Source of the DNA: an uncultured Candidatus Saccharibacteria bacterium
GTDB taxonomy: Bacteria; Patescibacteriota; Minisyncoccia; Phycocordibacterales; Phycocordibacteraceae
Length of the DNA: 64,000 nt
Direction of reading: 5' to 3'
Assembly (NCBI GenBank): GCA_964391975.1
Contig: CAYMNZ010000001.1
Coordinates: 262,978-326,977, forward strand
Under the pieces are notes generated by a model. It had not been told where the DNA came from. It did not search any database and saw only the letters and a list, made by a program, of their open reading frames with translations. Positions 3,556 through 53,518 of the stretch are shown one piece after another. Position 1 is the stretch's first letter, and each line of letters begins with the position of its first letter. A program made the translations under genes and the position numbers.

Positions 3556-4701
3556 ATGTCACGAGTGAAGCTCACAGAATACCGGGCAAAGTCCCTCATA
3601 CTTGGTGGCGAGTACACTGGCGTCTCGCTATCCTCTTCGAGTGATACGGTCCCTGAAGGAGCATGGGTGGTGAAAGTGGACCAGGGAATTAAAAAGCGCA
3701 TGAAGCAGGGCTTGGTGAAAGTGAATATTTCTTCCAAGGAGATTGGCCCGGCAATTGCTGAGTGGGAGAAGAAAGGATTTTCAAACTTTATTGCAGAGCC
3801 ACTGCTCCCACACGAAGCTTCCGAGGAACAGTATCTCTCACTTGAAAGGGTGCGTGAGGGCATTCGTCTGCTCCATGCGAAGGAAGGCGGCATTGAGATA
3901 GAGGAACATCCAGAGAAGGTAAGGAGCTTCATTCTCACGGAAAGTGTTGCTGGCACGGCAAAGGAGACAGGCGTACCGGAAGAGTTCCTTACTTCGCTTG
4001 TTGATACTTTTGAGAAGAATCATTTCGCGTTTCTCGAGATAAACCCTCTTGTCATCAAAGACGGGAAGGTGCATCTGCTTGATGCGGCGGTGTTGGTTGA
4101 CAGTGCTGCGGAGTTTTTTGTTAAAGGTGCCTGGACTGAAACAGATATTGTCGAAGGGAAGGCGAAACATCAGGCCGAAGAGAATGTGGCTGCACTTCAG
4201 AAGACGACCCCTGCCTCCCTCAAGCTCTCTGTGTTGAATGAGGAGGGTTCCCTCTTCTTTTTGCTTTCCGGCGGCGGAGGCTCAATTGTCATTGCTGACG
4301 AAGCGGCACTCCTTGGGCAGGGAGATGCCATTGGTAACTATGGAGAATACAGCGGTGGTCCGACGCGAGAGGAGACCTATCTCTACACTAAGGAGGTACT
4401 TTCGCTGTTGCTGGCATCTAAGGCTCCTAAGAAGGCGCTCGTAATTGCCGGAGGAGTAGCGAACTTTACTGACGTTGCCAAAACCTTTGCTGGTATTCGT
4501 GACGCGCTGGCAGAAGTGTCTGGAGAAATGAAGAAAGCACGTATCAAGGTATTTATACGCCGCGGCGGCCCGAACGAAGCTAAGGGACTTGCTGACATGA
4601 AAATATTCCTCGACCAGGAAGGTCTTCTGGGGGCTATTCATGGCTCGAGCGCGGTCATCACCAGTGCGGTTGATGACGCCGTTACGTTCATACAAGCATG
4701 A
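3556..4701 (+). CDS. ATP-grasp subunit of an ATP-citrate lyase / citryl-CoA synthetase-like enzyme (SucC/AclB family)
   Basis: N-terminus LTEYRAKSL..WVVKVDQG..VKV and an EINPLVI motif parallel succinyl-CoA synthetase beta. Translationally coupled to the next gene. Confidence 0.55.
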   Translation: MSRVKLTEYRAKSLILGGEYTGVSLSSSSDTVPEGAWVVKVDQGIKKRMKQGLVKVNISSKEIGPAIAEWEKKGFSNFIAEPLLPHEASEEQYLSLERVREGIRLLHAKEGGIEIEEHPEKVRSFILTESVAGTAKETGVPEEFLTSLVDTFEKNHFAFLEINPLVIKDGKVHLLDAAVLVDSAAEFFVKGAWTETDIVEGKAKHQAEENVAALQKTTPASLKLSVLNEEGSLFFLLSGGGGSIVIADEAALLGQGDAIGNYGEYSGGPTREETYLYTKEVLSLLLASKAPKKALVIAGGVANFTDVAKTFAGIRDALAEVSGEMKKARIKVFIRRGGPNEAKGLADMKIFLDQEGLLGAIHGSSAVITSAVDDAVTFIQA

Positions 4702-6473
4702 CCATTCTCGACACCATTAGGGGCGGGGAACGGGGAATTGTTATCGCAGGTAACCACCCTGCCATCGTGCAGTCCATGCTCGATTTCGATTACCTCTCTG
4801 GCAAGGAGCGTTCGATTATCGGTATTGTGACCGGGGCTCGAAAGGCGCAGAAGTATTTCTGGGGAAAGGAAGAGATCCTTGTTCCCTGTTATAAGGATTT
4901 TACATCGGTTCCTGAGAAGGACCGTGTTCGCTTCCTTTTGAACCTTCAATCAGGGCGCCGTGCTTTTGACGTCACCGTTTCTTTCTTTGAGACGTTCCCC
5001 GAGGCTTTGGGCGCTCATCTCTTTGCAGAGAACGTACCAGAAGCGCACGCCATTGAACTTATCCGCCGTTTTGGTGGGAAGAAACTCATTGCAGGACCTT
5101 CAGGTGTGGGCATGTTGGTCCCGGGGCACCTAAAGCTCGGAGCCATAGGAGGAGTCGATATTCCACAGATTATGGCCAGCAAGCTCACCACACCCGGCTC
5201 CATAACTGTTGTGGCTACCTCAGGAGGTATGACGAGTGAGCTCATTCGCGCAGTGACATCTGCAGGGAAGCGACTTTCCTTCTCCTTATGTATTGGAGGC
5301 GATAGGTTTCCGGTCTCATCGCTTGGGGATGTGCTCGCGCTTGCAGAGGCGGATGCGCAGACGAAGGGAATCGTGTACTTCGGCGAGCTTGGCGGGGTGG
5401 ATGAATACGAGATAGTCGAATTGATAAAGGCGAAGAAGCTTACCAAGCCAGTGGTCGCCTACATCGCAGGTATCGTCGACGAGGCGTTCGATGAGCACAT
5501 GCAGTTTGGGCACGCTAAGGCGCTGGTTGCCCACAAGGATGAAAGTGCACGGGCAAAGCGAGAAGCTTTGAGGGAAGTTGGTGTCATTGCACCGGATACC
5601 TTCCCAGAGTTCTTGGAGGCTATGAAGAGTCTCCCTGAGGGGGAATTTAGTGATACCATCATCGATACACAAACGCTTATGGACCGACAGAAAAGTATTC
5701 TTTCAACAAGGGAAGTCATGGACCTCGAGGAGGCACCGACCTTTGTTTCAAACGGACAGTTGGTTAAGAACGACAGGACCTTTGCGTCGTCGGCTCTTGC
5801 TGCGCTTCTTGGTGCTCCTGCCAAGTCCCCTGTTACCAACGCGTATGCGGAGGCCATCTTCACGCTCCTCATCGACCACGGAGGCCATGTCTCAGGTGCC
5901 GTGAACACCATGGTAACTGCGCGCGCAGGAAAGGATCTCGTTTCTTCGCTCACCTCCGGATTGCTTACCATTGGTCCTCGTTTTGGAGGGGCTATTAATG
6001 AGGCTGCGCGTACTTGGAGGGCGGGTGTTGCATCAGGGCAGAACGCAGCTGACTTCGTTGAGGCTTCGACCAAGGGAGGAAAGGTTATCTCTGGTATTGG
6101 GCACCGCAAGTACCGTGTGGGGCTCCCGGACCCTCGTGTAGCAGCGCTTTCAACCTTTGCAGAGCTCTTGAAGTCCCACCCACATTACGACCTTGCCCGC
6201 GAGGTAGAGAAGGTAACGACTGGTAAGAATGGCTCTCTCATCCTTAACGTCGACGGCGTTATTGCTTCCCTGATGCTCGACATTCTTGCTGAGTGCGAAG
6301 GGTACGACGATAAGCAGATTCAGGAGCTTATTGATGCTGAGTTCTTCAATGCGCTCTTCGTCATACCGCGCTCCGTAGGCTTCATCGCGCACTTCATGGA
6401 ACAGAAGGAGAATGACGAGGGGTTGTTCAGGCTCCCAGACGAGCTTTTGTTCGAACGCAAACAGGGAGAGTAG
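4698..6473 (+). CDS. CoA-ligase plus citrate-synthase-like subunit (AclA-like ATP-citrate lyase alpha)
   Basis: N-terminal CoA-binding fold, a GHAKA-like phospho-His region and a C-terminal citrate synthase signature GHRKYRVGLPDPR. A 591 aa length fits AclA. Confidence 0.55.
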   Translation: MTILDTIRGGERGIVIAGNHPAIVQSMLDFDYLSGKERSIIGIVTGARKAQKYFWGKEEILVPCYKDFTSVPEKDRVRFLLNLQSGRRAFDVTVSFFETFPEALGAHLFAENVPEAHAIELIRRFGGKKLIAGPSGVGMLVPGHLKLGAIGGVDIPQIMASKLTTPGSITVVATSGGMTSELIRAVTSAGKRLSFSLCIGGDRFPVSSLGDVLALAEADAQTKGIVYFGELGGVDEYEIVELIKAKKLTKPVVAYIAGIVDEAFDEHMQFGHAKALVAHKDESARAKREALREVGVIAPDTFPEFLEAMKSLPEGEFSDTIIDTQTLMDRQKSILSTREVMDLEEAPTFVSNGQLVKNDRTFASSALAALLGAPAKSPVTNAYAEAIFTLLIDHGGHVSGAVNTMVTARAGKDLVSSLTSGLLTIGPRFGGAINEAARTWRAGVASGQNAADFVEASTKGGKVISGIGHRKYRVGLPDPRVAALSTFAELLKSHPHYDLAREVEKVTTGKNGSLILNVDGVIASLMLDILAECEGYDDKQIQELIDAEFFNALFVIPRSVGFIAHFMEQKENDEGLFRLPDELLFERKQGE

Positions 6474-11285: not shown

Positions 11286-11309
11286 GGATGCCTGGGTTAT
11301 ACTTTCCAC

Positions 11310-28422: not shown

Positions 28423-28445
28423 GGGTTCTGCTATACTTTCCAGAT

Positions 28446-32599: not shown

Positions 32600-32616
32600 C
32601 TTGCTATACTTGCCGC

Positions 32617-43753: not shown

Positions 43754-43772
43754 GCTGGGGTATAGTCGTTCA

Positions 43773-48065: not shown

Positions 48066-50033
48066 CTACCAAATGCGAGCACGGTCCTTAGAAGCTCGGA
48101 AGAGACCGTCGCCTTTCTCGACATCAAAGGCAGTGTAGAAGTCATCGATGTTTGAGAGCGGTCCATTGATGCGGAACTTTGCAGGGGAGTGCGGGTCCGT
48201 AAGTGCCGCTGTCTTCTGAAAGGCGGGGCGTGCATTCTCCCTATCAAAGAGCGTGACACCCAGGAAGAAGCGTTGCTCGGGGGTATAGCCACCGATAACC
48301 TTCCAGCCTGTTTTCTTGAGACGGAGCTTATAAGCGTCAAAGGAGATAGCGATGCCGCCGAGGTCCGCAATATTCTCGCCGAGGGTTAACTTGCCGTTGA
48401 CTTTCACCCCATCAGCAACGCTGTAGCGGTTGAACTGGTCGACGAGTAGTTTGGATTTCTTCTCAAAGCGAGCACGGTCTTTCTTGGTCCACCAGCTCTT
48501 AAGGTTGCCTTTCTCGTCATACTTGGAGCCCTGGTCATCAAAGCCGTGGGTAATTTCATGACCGATAACTGAACCAATGGAGCCGTAGTTAACCGCGTCA
48601 TCTGCTTTTGGGTCAAAGAAGGGTGGCTGGAGAATGGCGGCAGGGAAGGCGATGTCGTTGAGGTTGGGGGCGAAGTAGGCGTTCACCGTCTGTGGGAACA
48701 TGAACCATTCAGTGCGGTCAATCGGCTTGGTGAGCTTGCGCATCTCGCGCTTGTGCACGAATTCAGAGACTCGTAGCAGGTTACCTACGTATTCATTCGG
48801 TAGCACAGAAAGACCCTTATAACTCTTCCACTTGTCAGGGTAGCCAATCTTGCGGTTAAGTGCGCGAAGCTTAATGAGTGCCTTCTTCTTCGTTGCAGGG
48901 CTCATCCAGTCGAGGTTCTTAAGCCGTGCTTTGTAGGCGGTAAAGAGGTCATCAACGAGGATATTCATCTTTCGCTTTGCCACAGGACTGAAGTGCTTCT
49001 TTACGTAGATGCGACCAAGGAGCTCACCTAGATTTCCGTTGACGCAGCCGAGTACCTGGCGCCACAAAGGCTTCATGACCTTCATGCCGGAAAGCACCGT
49101 GCCATAGAAGGCAAAGTTCTGCTTAACAAAAGGTTCTGAGAGAGCACCTGCGAAATCGTTGAGCACATGCCAGGTGAAGTACGTGCGCCAGTCTTCAATA
49201 GGAACCGTGACGAGCATTTTACCAACCGCCTTGAGAAACTGCGGCTGCATGGCGATAACGGCCTTTGTGTTCTTTGCATCAAGGCGCTCTAGGTACTCTT
49301 TCCAGACTATCTGCGGGGCGAGTTTCTGAAGTGCTCCAAGTGTTTTCTTGTGATAGACCTTGTCGGCGTCCCTGCGGTCGACCTTGGTCATGGAGACCTT
49401 AGCCAGTTCCGTCTCAATGCGCATCACTGTTGCCGCTGCTTTTGCTGCGGGCTTTGGAGCAAGGCCTGCAAGTTGGAACATGGAAGTTACATGCGGTACG
49501 TATTTCTCCCGCACTCGCTTTGATTCTGTGTCGTCCTTGAGGTAGTAGTCGCGGTCGGGCATGCCAAGACCATCCTGGAAGAGGTGGATGATGTAGCGCT
49601 CGCTATCCTTTGAGTCCTGGTCTATGCCAGCACCGAAGAGTACGCCAACTCCTACACGATGGAGCTTGGCCATGGTGCGGAGCAGGTCTTCCTTTGTTTG
49701 CATGAACTTCACTTCTGCGAGCAGGGAAGCCAGAGGGGCGAGTCCAATGGCATTGCGATGCTTCTGGTCCATGCCGGAGCGATAGAAGTCCCGAATCATT
49801 TGCTCAGGGGAGCCCTTGGGGAGTGAGCGCTTCTTAAGAAGGCCTTCGAGTATGGCTTTGAGCTTCTTTTCCGTGTCGTAGCGGAGAATCATGAAGCTGC
49901 CCCAGCGTGCCTCTTCTTTAGGAATCGGGTTGCGCTCGAGCCAACCGCCAGAGGCGTGTTGGTAGAAGTCGTCTTGTGGACGTGTTTTTGGGTCTAAATC
50001 CTTAGAATTAAAGCCCCAGTTTCTTGAACTCAT
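48066..50033 (-). CDS. pepO: M13 family zinc metallopeptidase (PepO/neprilysin-like)
   Basis: HEITHGFD (HExxH) and an ENIAD-like second motif. 655 aa. Confidence 0.9.
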   Translation of the reverse strand: MSSRNWGFNSKDLDPKTRPQDDFYQHASGGWLERNPIPKEEARWGSFMILRYDTEKKLKAILEGLLKKRSLPKGSPEQMIRDFYRSGMDQKHRNAIGLAPLASLLAEVKFMQTKEDLLRTMAKLHRVGVGVLFGAGIDQDSKDSERYIIHLFQDGLGMPDRDYYLKDDTESKRVREKYVPHVTSMFQLAGLAPKPAAKAAATVMRIETELAKVSMTKVDRRDADKVYHKKTLGALQKLAPQIVWKEYLERLDAKNTKAVIAMQPQFLKAVGKMLVTVPIEDWRTYFTWHVLNDFAGALSEPFVKQNFAFYGTVLSGMKVMKPLWRQVLGCVNGNLGELLGRIYVKKHFSPVAKRKMNILVDDLFTAYKARLKNLDWMSPATKKKALIKLRALNRKIGYPDKWKSYKGLSVLPNEYVGNLLRVSEFVHKREMRKLTKPIDRTEWFMFPQTVNAYFAPNLNDIAFPAAILQPPFFDPKADDAVNYGSIGSVIGHEITHGFDDQGSKYDEKGNLKSWWTKKDRARFEKKSKLLVDQFNRYSVADGVKVNGKLTLGENIADLGGIAISFDAYKLRLKKTGWKVIGGYTPEQRFFLGVTLFDRENARPAFQKTAALTDPHSPAKFRINGPLSNIDDFYTAFDVEKGDGLFRASKDRARIW

Positions 50034-50074
50034 TGGGTGAAGTATAGCGTTCCCGAATCAGTGGCGCCATGTGG

Positions 50075-50108
50075 GTTCGAATCCTGGGCGGCCAGCAAGA
50101 GGTATACT
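50075..50108 (+). promoter_or_regulatory. degenerate copy (copy 0) of the repeated upstream motif plus TATACT
   Basis: GTTCGAATCCTGGGCGGCCAGC, then TATACT 6 nt before ATG 50115. Confidence 0.35.
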
Positions 50109-50114
50109 GTCGCT

Positions 50115-50456
50115 ATGAGCGATGAATGGCCGTCAGGGAAACCAAAAGTACCTGCAGGAGTGCAGGAAGGATATGACGCATTTATGCAAAACTCTCAAGA
50201 TGAGCTTAGAGAATTTATTACCAATATGGGCCACGGCTGGTACCGACTTATCATTGAATTTCGAAAAGTGGGAGAGAAAACCAGACTCGAGCATCTAGAT
50301 GCTGGCAGTTTGGATCATCTGTTTGAAGAGCTGAGAGACACTGAACTTGATGAAAGACTTGGTCGAACGCTTGCATATCTTCCAGATAGCAAATTGGATC
50401 AACTAATCTCATACATGGACCCGGCTATCAAGGCTCAGTACGGGTGGGCGAACTAA
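50115..50456 (+). CDS. hypothetical protein
   Basis: Start placed after the promoter-like motif. The track ORF from 50037 would contain the motif. No homology. Confidence 0.35.
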   Translation: MSDEWPSGKPKVPAGVQEGYDAFMQNSQDELREFITNMGHGWYRLIIEFRKVGEKTRLEHLDAGSLDHLFEELRDTELDERLGRTLAYLPDSKLDQLISYMDPAIKAQYGWAN

Positions 50457-50460
50457 GCGG

Positions 50461-50500
50461 GTTCCAACATCGTCCCAGACAGCCAGCGATACGTTAGAAT
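50461..50500 (+). promoter_or_regulatory. repeated upstream motif copy 1 plus TAGAAT -10
   Basis: GTTCCAACATCGTCCCAGACAGCCAGC, then TAGAAT 6 nt before ATG 50507. Confidence 0.55.
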
Positions 50501-50506
50501 ATTGAT

Positions 50507-50881
50507 ATGGCTGAACATATAGAAAGACACGCTTCCTCCTTCTTGTTCAGCGAAACACAAGAAGGAGATACCTTTCGATTCTCTTGCGAGCGTGAGGGAA
50601 AGAAGATTGCGGCCGCTTCCGCCACGCTCATCGGCGACAACTTATACGGTATCGGAGGCGTGTTTGTAGATCCGTCACGTCGCAATGAAGGCGTCGGCTC
50701 AAGTTTACTGAAACAAGTAAACGAATTTCTAAGAAGAAAGAAAGCAAGAGGCCGGTTAGTAAATACGGCCCAAGGAGACTCTGCCCGCTTATATGAAAGT
50801 AGTGGATGGAAGCGAGGCCAACACGCATCCCAGGGTGCATATGGCGGCTATGAATATACTTTTGATGGAACTGGCGCGTGA
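50507..50881 (+). CDS. GNAT family N-acetyltransferase
   Basis: GGVFVDPSRRNEGVGSSLL is GNAT motif A. Confidence 0.6.
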   Translation: MAEHIERHASSFLFSETQEGDTFRFSCEREGKKIAAASATLIGDNLYGIGGVFVDPSRRNEGVGSSLLKQVNEFLRRKKARGRLVNTAQGDSARLYESSGWKRGQHASQGAYGGYEYTFDGTGA

Positions 50882-50922
50882 GTTCCAACATTGTCCAAGA
50901 CAGCCAGCAACAATGTATAGTT
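50882..50922 (+). promoter_or_regulatory. repeated upstream motif copy 2 plus TATAGT -10
   Basis: GTTCCAACATTGTCCAAGACAGCCAGC begins 1 nt after the upstream stop. TATAGT follows. Confidence 0.55.
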
Positions 50923-51294
50923 ATGAGCATGAAGATTTACGTTGCCCATTCAAGTGGCTTCGACTTTCAGAAGGAGTTGTACAGCTCAATAAAAAACAGT
51001 GCGGCAGCACAGGAGCACACGTTTATATTTCCGCATGAAAACAGCTCCGAGCCTTTCAACTCGAAAGACCTTTTTGAGAACGAATGCGATCTAGTTCTTG
51101 CGGAAGTTTCGTATCCTTCGACAGGCCTTGGAATCGAGCTAGGGTGGGCGGAAATGCTCGGTATTCCTGTGGTCTGCATATACAAGACTGGCTCTAAAAT
51201 TTCTAATGCACTTACCAAAGTTTCAAAGACGTTTCTTGAGTATGGTGATGAGCAAGAGCTACAGAAGGCGATAGAGAAAGCAGTGAAGGCTTAA
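50923..51294 (+). CDS. nucleoside 2-deoxyribosyltransferase-like protein
   Basis: CDLVLAEVSYPSTGLGIELGWAEMLGIPVVCI matches the NDT-family core. Start at ATG 50923 or 50929. Confidence 0.5.
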   Translation: MSMKIYVAHSSGFDFQKELYSSIKNSAAAQEHTFIFPHENSSEPFNSKDLFENECDLVLAEVSYPSTGLGIELGWAEMLGIPVVCIYKTGSKISNALTKVSKTFLEYGDEQELQKAIEKAVKA

Positions 51295-51298
51295 AAAG

Positions 51299-51336
51299 GT
51301 TCCAACATCGTCCAGACAGTCAGCCGATGTTATATT
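51299..51336 (+). promoter_or_regulatory. repeated upstream motif copy 3 plus TATATT -10
   Basis: GTTCCAACATCGTCCAGACAGTCAGC (one deletion), then TATATT 6 nt before ATG 51343. Confidence 0.55.
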
Positions 51337-51342
51337 TAACAA

Positions 51343-51543
51343 ATGAAATTAAACACAAAAGACAATCGACACCTGTTCTCAGAAATTGTGTTTCTCCTTG
51401 CGTCTGTTCTAGTCTTCCGGAGCGCATGGCATCTTCTTGATAAGTATCCTCTATTCGATGAACCGCTAATGCTCATCCTTTTGCTTGTGCTGGGCTTAGC
51501 GCTTGCTATACCGTCTATGCGACTTATCATTAAGAACAATTAG
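51343..51543 (+). CDS. small hypothetical membrane protein (2 TM)
   Basis: 66 aa hydrophobic ORF positioned exactly after motif copy 3. Confidence 0.4.
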   Translation: MKLNTKDNRHLFSEIVFLLASVLVFRSAWHLLDKYPLFDEPLMLILLLVLGLALAIPSMRLIIKNN

Positions 51544-51550
51544 TAGAAGG

Positions 51551-51589
51551 GTTCCAACATCGTCCCAGACTGCCACTTTGTGGTATCTT
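51551..51589 (+). promoter_or_regulatory. repeated upstream motif copy 4 plus TGGTATCTT extended -10
   Basis: GTTCCAACATCGTCCCAGACTGCCAC, then TATCTT 7 nt before the alaS ATG. Confidence 0.55.
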
Positions 51590-51596
51590 TCTTCCA

Positions 51597-53504
51597 ATGA
51601 AGGTAGCTGAGGTGCGCAAACGATATCTAGAGTTCTTCAAGGAACGCGAGCACGTGATTATTCCGTCTGCGCCTATCGTCCCCGGCAACGACCCGACGAC
51701 CCTCTTTACCTCCTCGGGTATGCAGCCCCTGTTGCCGTATCTGCTTGGGAAAGACCACCCGGAGGGTAACCGGGTTGTTAACTCCCAGATGAGCTTCCGT
51801 GCGGGAGACATCGAAGAGGTGGGTGACAACCGCCACACCACCTTCTTTGAGATGCTCGGGAACTGGTCCCTTGGTGATTATTTCAAAGCAGAGCAGCTCC
51901 CCTGGGTCTTTGAGTTCCTAACTTCCAAAGAGAAGGGTCTTGGGCTGAATCCTGAGAAGCTCTACGTCACCGTGTTCGCTGGAGATGCGGAATCGGGAAT
52001 GGAATCTGATAAGGAATCGGTAGCGATTTGGCAACGTCTCTACAAAGAAGCGGGAATCGATGCTGATTTTGTTGAAATTGGAACTGAAGAAGACGGCTAC
52101 CAGAAAGGAATGCAGGGCGGCCGCATCTTCTCCTATGGCGCCAAGAAGAATTGGTGGAGCCGCGCAGGAGTTCCAGCAAACATGCCAGCAGGAGAGCCAG
52201 GAGGACCTGATTCCGAGGTCTTCTACGACTTCGGTCTTCCGCACGACCCGAAGTGGGGTACTGAATGCCATCCTAACTGTGACTGTGGACGTTTCGTTGA
52301 AATAGGGAACTCGGTGTTCATGCAGTTTGTGAAGGAAGCAGACGGCTCTTTTACACCACTTCCTAAGATGAACGTGGACTTCGGAGGAGGACTTGAGCGC
52401 ATTGCCTTTGCGGTCCTCAACAACCCGGACATCTTTGCTATCGATGTCTTTGAAAGCGCACGGCGTGCTCTTGAGGCTCGCTCTGGGAAGACGTATGGCA
52501 GTGACGAGGCGACCACTCGTTCCTTCCGCATCATCCTCGACCATATTCGCGCTTCTTCCTTCATGCTTGCTGAAGGGGTGTTGCCCTCCAACACCGAAGC
52601 AGGGTATGTGCTCCGTCGTCTTCTTCGTCGTGCCATTCGTGAGGTAGACCGTCTTGGCATCAAGGAAGCGATTCTTCCTGAAGTTGCTGCAGGCTTTGGA
52701 GATGCGTATGCCGACCACTATCCGCATGTGAAGGCAGCGAGCGCAAAGATTGCAGAGGAGCTTTCTAAGGAAGAAGAGAAGTTCCGAAAGACACTTGCGC
52801 AGGGACTCAAGGAATTTGAGAAACTTAAGGCCGTCTCTGCAGACGATGCTTTCACTCTGTTTACGACCTTTGGCTTCCCAGTTGAACTCACCGAGGAGCT
52901 CGCTAAGGAGCGCAGCATTTCTATAGACATGAAGGCAGTGGAAGCACGCATGAAAGAGCATCAGGACACCTCACGCGCAGGTGGCGCCCAGCGCTTTGCA
53001 GGAGGACTTGCCGACCACGCAGAACAGACGGTGCGCTACCACACCACCCACCACATTCTCCTCAAGGCGCTCCAGATGGTGCTTGGCGACGAGGTGAAGC
53101 AGCGGGGAAGCAACATCACCTCAGAGAGGCTTCGCATCGACTTCGCCTCACCTGGAAAGATGACGGACGAACAGAAGGCGGAAGTGGAGAAGATTGTGAA
53201 CGACACTGTCTATCAGGACCTTCCAGTCACTCGCACCGTTATGCCACGCGAAGACGCTGAGAAGCTTGGCGCTCAGATGGAGTTCGGGGTGAAATACCCA
53301 GACATGGTGTCGGTGTATTCAGTGGGTCCTATACACGCAACACAGGAGAGTCCAGATATTCCAAACGCTTTCTCGCTTGAGTTCTGTGGTGGTCCGCACG
53401 TCACCAACACCAGCGAAATACACGAAGGTGGTAAGAAATTTAAGATACAGAAAGAAGAAGCAGTTGCTGCGGGGATTCGAAGGATAAAAGCCGTTATGGC
53501 ATAG
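51597..53504 (+). CDS. alaS: alanyl-tRNA synthetase lacking the C-terminal C-Ala domain
   Basis: Class II catalytic core (FTSSGMQPL, WSLGDYFK) and an editing domain with HxxxH and CGGPH. Only 635 aa. Confidence 0.88.
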   Translation: MKVAEVRKRYLEFFKEREHVIIPSAPIVPGNDPTTLFTSSGMQPLLPYLLGKDHPEGNRVVNSQMSFRAGDIEEVGDNRHTTFFEMLGNWSLGDYFKAEQLPWVFEFLTSKEKGLGLNPEKLYVTVFAGDAESGMESDKESVAIWQRLYKEAGIDADFVEIGTEEDGYQKGMQGGRIFSYGAKKNWWSRAGVPANMPAGEPGGPDSEVFYDFGLPHDPKWGTECHPNCDCGRFVEIGNSVFMQFVKEADGSFTPLPKMNVDFGGGLERIAFAVLNNPDIFAIDVFESARRALEARSGKTYGSDEATTRSFRIILDHIRASSFMLAEGVLPSNTEAGYVLRRLLRRAIREVDRLGIKEAILPEVAAGFGDAYADHYPHVKAASAKIAEELSKEEEKFRKTLAQGLKEFEKLKAVSADDAFTLFTTFGFPVELTEELAKERSISIDMKAVEARMKEHQDTSRAGGAQRFAGGLADHAEQTVRYHTTHHILLKALQMVLGDEVKQRGSNITSERLRIDFASPGKMTDEQKAEVEKIVNDTVYQDLPVTRTVMPREDAEKLGAQMEFGVKYPDMVSVYSVGPIHATQESPDIPNAFSLEFCGGPHVTNTSEIHEGGKKFKIQKEEAVAAGIRRIKAVMA

Positions 53505-53518
53505 CGTATACTGGAGCT

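Follow-up and report, generated by a model that had tools for sequence, protein, structure and literature searches.

Motif-bounded gene cassettes beside tRNA-Gln in Patescibacteria and the serine recombinase elements that probably use the motif as attachment site

Introduction

Patescibacteria, the candidate phyla radiation (CPR), account for much of the diversity of bacteria; their genomes are below 1 Mb and few of their mobile elements have been described. According to a 2025 study of groundwater plasmids, CPR plasmids are "rarely studied" (PMC12023590). Here we analyse a stretch of 64,000 nucleotides (nt) from an uncultured Candidatus Saccharibacteria bacterium (assembly GCA_964391975.1, contig CAYMNZ010000001.1, positions 262,978 to 326,977), which we call the window and in whose own numbering its coordinates are given. 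Ahead of the alanyl-tRNA synthetase gene alaS, a motif of 27 nt recurs four times in front of short genes, and the question raised by this locus is what the motif does there. In the original prediction, made from the letters of the window, it was a site for a common regulator or an alternative sigma factor. Comparison with other genomes points elsewhere: the motif is probably the attachment site of a large serine recombinase (LSR), whose integrative elements, seated at tRNA-Gln genes, would leave behind arrays of gene cassettes that are turned over at the tRNA end.

Results

Four motif copies of a family found across Patescibacteria

Four copies of GTTCCAACATCGTCC(C)AGACnGCCAGC are present in the window, all on the + strand, and the remainder of the window contains none. 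Shuffled sequence gave 0 matches to the 27-nt motif, the chance expectation for four copies being none, and a profile built from 341 copies of other genomes recovered exactly these four, each with E ≤ 1e-7. The fine layout is as it was first described. The preceding stop codon ends 4, 0, 4 and 7 nt ahead of copies 1 to 4, respectively, so that in the second cassette the stop codon of the acetyltransferase gene directly abuts the motif. Past each copy, a TAnnnT box begins after 6–7 nt and ends 6–7 nt ahead of an ATG.

Further loci, labelled L001 onward, were gathered by a scan of species-representative genomes and a scan of metagenome contigs, and open reading frames (ORFs) in them were called heuristically. 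All family numbers are lower bounds: at least 145 Patescibacteria loci with at least 377 copies. Among the matches listed, every locus with a named taxon and the full motif belongs to Patescibacteria/CPR, and the taxa with the full motif are Paceibacterota/Parcubacteria, Saccharibacteria, and Nomura-, Wolfe-, Kaiser-, Berkel- and Moranii-bacteria. The conserved site spans ~35 nt and can be written A(-6)-n-AAAG GTTCCAACATCGTCCCAGAC-n-G-CCAGC-AA. It does not fold (minimum free energy −1.0 kcal/mol, z = +1.06), it contains no dyad, and inverted-repeat partners downstream of it are not in excess (≥6 bp in 8 observed versus 12 shuffled cases).

At least 103 loci carry two or more copies. Within every locus listed the copies share one orientation, and in these loci they are spaced by a median of 545 nt (interquartile range 413–683). 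Single-ORF units number 176 among the loci listed, 104 of them with the ORF on the motif strand. These same-strand ORFs stop 0–8 nt before the next motif and start mostly 19–21 nt after the previous one; beside the opposite-strand ORFs there remain ~53 nt on one side, enough for a terminator, and ~55 nt on the other, enough for a promoter. The motif-to-start distance has its mode at 19–21 nt in other genomes, yet 72 of the enclosed ORFs (41%) lie on the opposite strand. Internal copies (n = 74) fall between two convergent gene 3′ ends in 18 cases (24%), and 31 have no same-strand start downstream. The distance from motif to −10 box varies in other genomes from 0 to more than 17 nt, and at some loci a terminator directly follows the motif.

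The motif in free and integrated forms of a serine recombinase element

In loci L155 and L199, an element of 6–7 kb lies between tRNA-Gln and the first motif and encodes an LSR, a rolling-circle replication initiator (Rep) of the G2P/RepSA type, a helix-turn-helix (HTH) protein and cargo. The LSR of L199 contains Resolvase, Recombinase and zinc-ribbon (Zn_ribbon_recom) domains, and its family comprises 2,584 homologues at E ≤ 1e-30. Six further homologues were looked up for their genomic context. For four of the six (five loci), the 3′ end of the LSR gene overlaps the 3′ end of a tRNA gene, with the motif at the far side on the strand of the tRNA; the fifth homologue is that of the free circle treated below, and the locus of the sixth (L288) contained no tRNA. 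The LSR 3′ end abuts tRNA-Gln in L155, L199, L277 and L279, by coordinates with a 13-nt overlap in L277 and L279, whose arrays hold 6–8 motif copies. It overlaps a tRNA-Gln 3′ fragment in L278, where there are 14 motif copies, and tRNA-Lys in L280/L281 (the LSR of L280 being 52% identical).

In the tRNA-Lys case the far junction reads GTTCCAACATCGTCCCAT (AAAGTTCCAACATCGTCCCAT) and then AGGGCGGAC, of which the final nine bases match the tRNA-Lys 3′ end exactly. Because of this junction we regard the motif as bipartite, consisting of a constant arm from the element and a copy of the end of the target tRNA; the invariant element-side arm is GTTCCAACATCGTCCCA. In several other loci (L001, L007, L011, L018, L019, L062, L082 and L087), the 17-nt arm is joined to different 3′ ends (CCTCTCCGC, GATGGTGCAC, GTTCGGAGC). 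These fusions may be junctions with other tRNAs, and CCTCTCCGC would fit the acceptor end of a tRNA-Ser; no tRNA matching the alternative fusions was found inside L001, L007, L011, L018, L062, L082 or L087. Three of the loci (L011, L019 and L087) carry a Gammaproteobacteria label.

The element was also found outside the chromosome. Contigs L282–L287 are 5,751 nt long and circularly permuted, with start points that differ between assemblies, and because the break points vary in this way we take them to represent a free circular form. The circle carries genes for Rep, the LSR, a 526-aa protein, a Shedu-type SduA_C protein and a 75-aa protein. Its single motif copy, GTTCCAACATCGTCCCAGACTGCCACCAGC, lies in L282 at 2241–2212 on the − strand, within the last 52 nt of the LSR ORF (767–2263), and is the predicted attP, the attachment site of the element itself. 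The free LSR has 498 aa and ends in ...VWDDVGTGLTISL, and the reverse strand of the motif encodes ...LVAVWDDVGTGLTISL. The integrated LSR (L277, 10001–11461) has 486 aa and ends in ...LEIMLRD*, its stop codon being taken from the T-stem of the tRNA. Since the free and integrated C-termini differ, insertion would shorten the recombinase from 498 to 486 aa, and this exchange of the C-terminus could switch the properties of the enzyme.

The LSR gene is thus physically linked to the site in L155, L199, L277–L280 and L282, and the integrated junctions are hybrids of the element arm and the host target. Comparison of these loci identifies the motif as the predicted attP/attR of the element family and the 3′ end of tRNA-Gln as its predicted target. 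A search for direct repeats on either side of the LSR elements gave none, in line with integration by a serine recombinase.

Viral contigs gave no relatives of the recombinase. They did return 34 matches to the 17-mer (L121–L154), which all fall in one homologous high-GC phage coding region; they were set aside as coincidence and not as CPR elements. This phage region has a 20-nt identity to the motif (GTTCCAACATCGTCCCAGAC), and its reverse complement, read by eye, gives VWDDVGTFDG, which contains the same heptapeptide as the tail of the recombinase.

tRNA-Gln anchors and the turnover of cassettes

Of 44 tRNAs in the family loci listed, 31 are tRNA-Gln, and 30 of these precede the array and share its strand, the gap to the first motif being usually the length of one cassette. 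What follows the tRNA is like what follows a motif: a spacer, a −10 box, 6–7 nt and an ATG. The 3′ part of the motif in turn resembles the T-stem and the acceptor 3′ strand of tRNA-Gln, and the discriminator base of the tRNA covaries with motif position 25 (G/G in 66 cases, A/A in 9 from five loci of at least two lineages, mismatched in 4). Only the last ~5 nt of the motif and the discriminator track the tRNA. The idea that the 3′ half of the motif is the displaced original tRNA end was rejected, as the match is not exact in L155, where the acceptor strands differ.

Comparison of related loci shows where the arrays change. Two loci of one metagenome, L162 and L199, show 100% identity across the tRNA-Gln region as far as ...CCCAGC, past which their sequences are unrelated. 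The difference between L262 and L270 is exactly one cassette of 844 nt between motif copies, and one cassette (98% identical) stands beside the tRNA in L158 and deeper inside the array in L239. Locus L157 is syntenic with the window from mnmA to ung, but has five different cassettes straight after ung. Its anchor is a tRNA-Gln 3′ fragment, TTCGATACCTAGTCTGCCAGCA, that overlaps the ung stop codon, and the M13 peptidase gene that lies between ung and the anchor in the window is absent at this position; because of the direct overlap, the peptidase gene would be either an insertion in the window or a loss in L157. Arrays are anchored by tRNA-Gln 3′ fragments also in L278 and L199/L162. On this comparison, cassettes are gained or lost as whole motif-bounded units, and the homology break together with the discriminator covariation places the exchange point in or beside the CCAGC block.

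Some further features of the tRNA side were noted. The first 120 nt of L199 and L162 contain a complete tRNA-Gln and, 15 nt on, a second tRNA-Gln 3′ fragment of a different allele (GGTTCGATCCCTAGTCTCCCAGC). In L199 this second fragment encodes the last codons of the recombinase and looks like the relic of an earlier insertion. Immediately upstream of tRNA-Gln, a protein of 224–245 aa with an HTH-like N-terminal region is encoded in L158, L163, L211 and L257 by ORFs that end at or overlap the 5′ side of the tRNA; L088 has a LAGLIDADG-domain protein (4635–5336) there instead. Accessory genes in the hypervariable tRNA-Gln locus encode HAD, NUDIX, GNAT, alpha/beta-hydrolase and kinase-type proteins.

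The array in the window

Seen against this family, the window contains a recombinase-less array: a tRNA-Gln 3′ fragment, four units each made up of its own −10 box, a leaderless-type ORF and the motif, and then alaS (Table 1). The proposal of cassette-like, independent units is supported, with two amendments. What had been taken for a degenerate fifth copy is a real sequence element followed by TATACT and an ATG at 50115, but it is the tRNA-Gln 3′ fragment and not a motif; with the motif profile it falls outside the family (E > 10), and ARAGORN found no complete tRNA at this position, the 5′ part being absent. The array had also been counted as five genes including alaS. However, alaS follows the last cassette: it is a core gene downstream of the array with its own leaderless-type −10 box, and is not a fifth cassette.

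Table 1. Coordinates of the array in the window and of related features (window numbering unless a locus is named).
Feature	Position	Strand	Description
Array anchor	50073–50097	+	tRNA-Gln-like 3′ fragment GGGTTCGAATCCTGGGCGGCCAGCA: T-loop, T-stem 3′ strand, acceptor 3′ strand, then GCA
Cassette 1	50098–50487	+	−10 box TATACT 50103–50108; ATG 50115; 113-aa ORF 50115–50456; motif copy 1
Motif copy 1	50461–50487	+	exact; extended site ~50455–50489
Cassette 2	50488–50908	+	−10 box TAGAAT 50495–50500; GNAT acetyltransferase ORF 50507–50881; motif copy 2
Motif copy 2	50882–50908	+	2 mismatches
Cassette 3	50909–51324	+	−10 box TATAGT 50916–50921; ORF 50929–51294 (alternative ATG 50923); motif copy 3
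Motif copy 3	51299–51324	+	1 mismatch and a 1-nt deletion
Cassette 4	51325–51577	+	−10 box TATATT 51331–51336; 66-aa hydrophobic ORF 51343–51543; motif copy 4
Motif copy 4	51551–51577	+	3 mismatches; 3′ end altered to GCCACT
alaS	51584–53504	+	−10 box TATCTT 51584–51589; ATG 51597; Pfam tRNA-synt_2c, E = 3e-120
M13 peptidase gene	48066–50033	−	between ung and anchor; own leaderless-type promoter; context, not assigned to the array
Leaderless-type promoters (examples)	11296–11309, 28432–28445, 32603–32616, 43759–43772, 53505–53518		before core genes
Shedu-type (SduA_C) defence gene	L282 3975–5189 (and L283–L287)		cargo of the free circle

Among the gene calls, GNAT (Pfam Acetyltransf_1, E = 3.6e-10) and alaS were confirmed. 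The ORF of cassette 3 resembles a nucleoside 2-deoxyribosyltransferase, as first proposed, but the Pfam Nuc_deoxyrib_tr match is weak and below the cut-off (E = 8.3e-6, 26.4 bits versus 28.8). A family search gave no match for the 113-aa and 66-aa ORFs. Other assemblies of the locus carry the same four cassettes, and an apparent strain difference in L291 proved to be a contig-end artefact. An Rfam scan of 49900–51700 gave no match to the motif, its sole return being a chance snoRNA (E = 0.4).

Two local sequence features were noticed in the array. At 51571–51595, a short hairpin made by the changed end of copy 4 (TGCCACTTTGTGGTA) is followed by a T-rich run over the −10 box of alaS, and this terminator-like structure could shield alaS from read-through. 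At copies 2 and 3, the spacer past the motif is complementary to ACATTG or AACATCG over 6–7 bp (50888–50893/50911–50916 and 51305–51311/51326–51332), and a base change on one side is matched on the other; because such complementarity is absent across the motif family, it is probably due to chance.

Promoters of the cassettes

The claim that the array yields leaderless mRNAs very probably holds. In other genomes, the TAnnnT box ends 6 nt before the start in 47 of the 104 same-strand cassettes and 7 nt before it in 13 (60 of 104 in all), and a Shine-Dalgarno-like sequence is present in 13%. The corresponding values for opposite-strand cassettes are 19% for the −10 arrangement and 44% for Shine-Dalgarno-like sequences. 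In the window itself, the pattern "TATACT, 6–7 nt, ATG" precedes 14 of the 36 motif-free genes with an upstream spacer of 25 nt or more (examples in Table 1), and Shine-Dalgarno-like sequences occur at 6 of 69 genes. Since so many motif-free genes share the pattern and so few genes have a Shine-Dalgarno-like sequence, leaderless expression would be the normal mode of this organism, and the promoter, found equally at genes without the motif, would be independent of it. Each cassette thus appears to carry its own minimal promoter, which would belong to the cassette and not to the motif.

Discussion

We consider it probable that the motif is an LSR attachment site, and that integrative elements inserted at tRNA-Gln leave cassette arrays which are turned over at the tRNA end. 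In the mechanism that we propose, elements of 4–7 kb carrying an LSR, a rolling-circle Rep, an HTH regulator and cargo would insert at the 3′ end of tRNA-Gln in such a way that the recombinase gene comes to abut and overlap the tRNA (attL) and the motif comes to lie at the far end (attR). As each copy in an array has both the element arm and the identity block, every copy would be equivalent to attR, and given this equivalence an LSR element at the head of an array could excise via a nearer or a farther copy. Such an excision would either leave cargo cassettes in place or remove some of them with the element, and for the growth and turnover of arrays at the tRNA end only the canonical attP × attB and attL × attR reactions would be needed. 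The LSR would be the catalyst of the recombination, and the movement of recombinase-less cassettes and the formation of arrays would follow the same route.

Several points weigh against this account. A phmmer search for the LSR found no recombinase gene in the 64-kb window, and the 140 larger ORFs within or next to arrays include no recurrent recombinase. Array copies have no conserved right half-site (P′) and so fall short of a complete attP. The exchange of internal cassettes is not accounted for by canonical LSR chemistry, the LSR elements in L203 and L218 have a left side with no recognisable tRNA or motif, and a XerD-like gene stands beside the array in two related loci. The evidence is entirely comparative. 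In addition, because loci were gathered by motif match, the sequence logo overstates conservation, and the locus set contains duplicates (L039 = L229, L203/L232, L163/L211, L166/L167 and L174/L205).

The main rival holds that the copies are inert scars, attR sites left by many past full-size insertions at tRNA-Gln that later lost their recombinase and replication modules and kept the cargo, with strain differences produced by homologous recombination between the ~30-nt repeats. The origin from an attachment site is common to both explanations, and degenerate copies within arrays (for example L199 6463–6498, E = 0.1, and L259, E = 0.48), the missing P′ half-site of array copies and the lack of a recombinase in the window all fit a history of scarring. 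Random deletions of 3–4 kb of backbone would, however, hardly be expected to produce units with a stop 0–8 nt before the motif and a start mostly 19–21 nt after it, and this regular geometry argues against inert scars, as do the near-perfect arms kept beside unrelated ORFs in arrays of up to 14 copies. No pseudogene fragments of recombinase or Rep were noticed between the cassettes of the arrays examined, and the 98% identical cassette that is tRNA-adjacent in L158 lies deeper in L239. We therefore judge inert scars to be unlikely, though to be taken seriously. The Rep protein offers another way of freeing cassettes, if the motif were the nick site or origin of this HUH enzyme, which would start at one copy and stop at the next. 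The autonomous elements do encode a G2P/RepSA-type Rep, and the site is asymmetric with copies in one orientation; but it is located in the 3′ end of the recombinase gene and not near rep, it forms no hairpin, and its second half tracks the target tRNA (Gln or Lys), as an integration site would and an origin would not, which makes this explanation highly improbable.

A tyrosine-recombinase cassette system, either an integron or a Xer/dif module with an attC-like or dif-like motif, would likewise have single-ORF cassettes and sites in one orientation, and the XerD-like gene lies just past the last motif in L231 (5431–6363, 12 nt away) and in L259 (4768–5481). Yet the motif shows no dyad, no fold and no downstream inverted-repeat partner, it measures 27–35 nt against 57–141 nt for an integron attC, and it does not resemble the usual XerD arm. 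No tyrosine recombinase recurs near the arrays (among the 140 ORFs) or occurs in the window, and the physical linkage is to a serine recombinase gene; we regard such a system as very unlikely. The regulatory explanation, in which the motif is a promoter element or operator through which an alternative sigma factor or shared regulator drives each leaderless gene, drew on the position of all four window copies 6–7 nt upstream of a −10 box and agrees with the commonest motif-to-start distance across genomes. It is almost certainly wrong: two-fifths of the enclosed ORFs lie on the opposite strand, a quarter of the internal copies stand between two 3′ ends, a terminator can directly follow the motif, the spacing to the −10 box is not fixed, the motif is missing from 14 leaderless-type promoters of the window, and in the free element the motif lies within the recombinase coding sequence, where it would serve as an attachment site. 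A reading of the reverse strand as a sigma-54 or extracytoplasmic function −35 element was dropped by eye, its spacing and orientation being inconsistent.

If the motif is an LSR attachment site, the system can be compared with several known ones. LSRs integrate phages and integrative elements, as in phiC31, Bxb1 and TP901-1. The elements described here resemble these in the Resolvase, Recombinase and zinc-ribbon domains, the attP at or in the recombinase gene, the specific target and the hybrid attL/attR. They differ in targeting the 3′ end of a tRNA gene, which the last codons of the recombinase supply or overlap, in that insertion swaps the recombinase C-terminus, and in that attR-type sites pile up in arrays (up to 14 copies) separating recombinase-less single-gene units; we know of no such arrays for LSR systems. 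The attC site of integrons is an imperfect palindrome of 57–141 nt that folds as single-stranded DNA. Integrons and clusters of attC sites lacking integrases (CALINs) share with the present arrays compact, mostly single-ORF cassettes, one site orientation, insertion at one end and often the lack of an adjacent recombinase. In contrast to them, the arrays here have no folding attC and no R/L box palindromes, their cassettes have their own promoters and are inverted in 41% of cases, the anchor is a tRNA end and not attI, and the linked enzyme is a serine recombinase and not the tyrosine recombinase IntI.

The element pSAM2 uses a tyrosine integrase, targets tRNA-Pro and builds no cassette arrays. 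Elements of this type, the actinomycete integrative and conjugative elements (AICEs), are similarly small and integrative, with tRNA integration and a RepSA-type rolling-circle initiator, for which the match here is weak. With sigma-70-type upstream elements and operators the window motif shares its position, covering about −47 to −21 of four promoters, whereas the motif family has no fixed spacing or orientation and is often not beside a gene start. In island formation there is a parallel with the tycheposons of Prochlorococcus, which combine integrase, replication and cargo modules, insert at tRNAs so that newcomers push older ones along, and carry tyrosine recombinases in 910 of 937 cases (bioRxiv 10.1101/2020.12.28.424599). 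Both are modular elements at tRNA 3′ ends with partial tRNAs as repeats and hypervariable islands as the outcome (bioRxiv 10.1101/2020.12.28.424599). Tycheposons belong to another phylum and their repeats are plain partial tRNAs, whereas here a non-tRNA arm of 17–23 nt is conserved between classes of Patescibacteria, and one-gene cassettes make up the island in a regular array.

A full-text literature search with the motif sequence in either orientation gave no match, and the literature on integrons, leaderless promoters, serine recombinases and islands in CPR, as far as our incomplete coverage of it extends, contains no description of the motif, the tRNA-Gln arrays or the element family. Judged from its sequence features, the system would be a tRNA-targeting serine-integrase element that builds islands as tycheposons do and whose product resembles an integron cassette array.

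For annotation, the locus carries a warning, namely that a motif regularly found upstream of genes can be a recombination site and not a regulatory one. The more than 2,500 serine recombinase homologues, with predictable attP/attB pairs, are raw material for genome-engineering landing pads. For Patescibacteria, the analysis defines a widespread mobile system, with its putative attachment site, target, recombinase family, and free and integrated forms, and it would account for the hypervariable locus beside tRNA-Gln. We tentatively suggest, as a possibility somewhat short of an even chance, that Patescibacteria may have a serine-recombinase counterpart of the integron, a platform shared within a genome-reduced lineage, in which leaderless single-gene cassettes with promoters of their own would be deposited and picked up at the 3′ end of tRNA-Gln by small shuttles of LSR plus Rep able to use any of many attR-equivalent sites, and from which a cassette pool moving between Patescibacteria classes would result.

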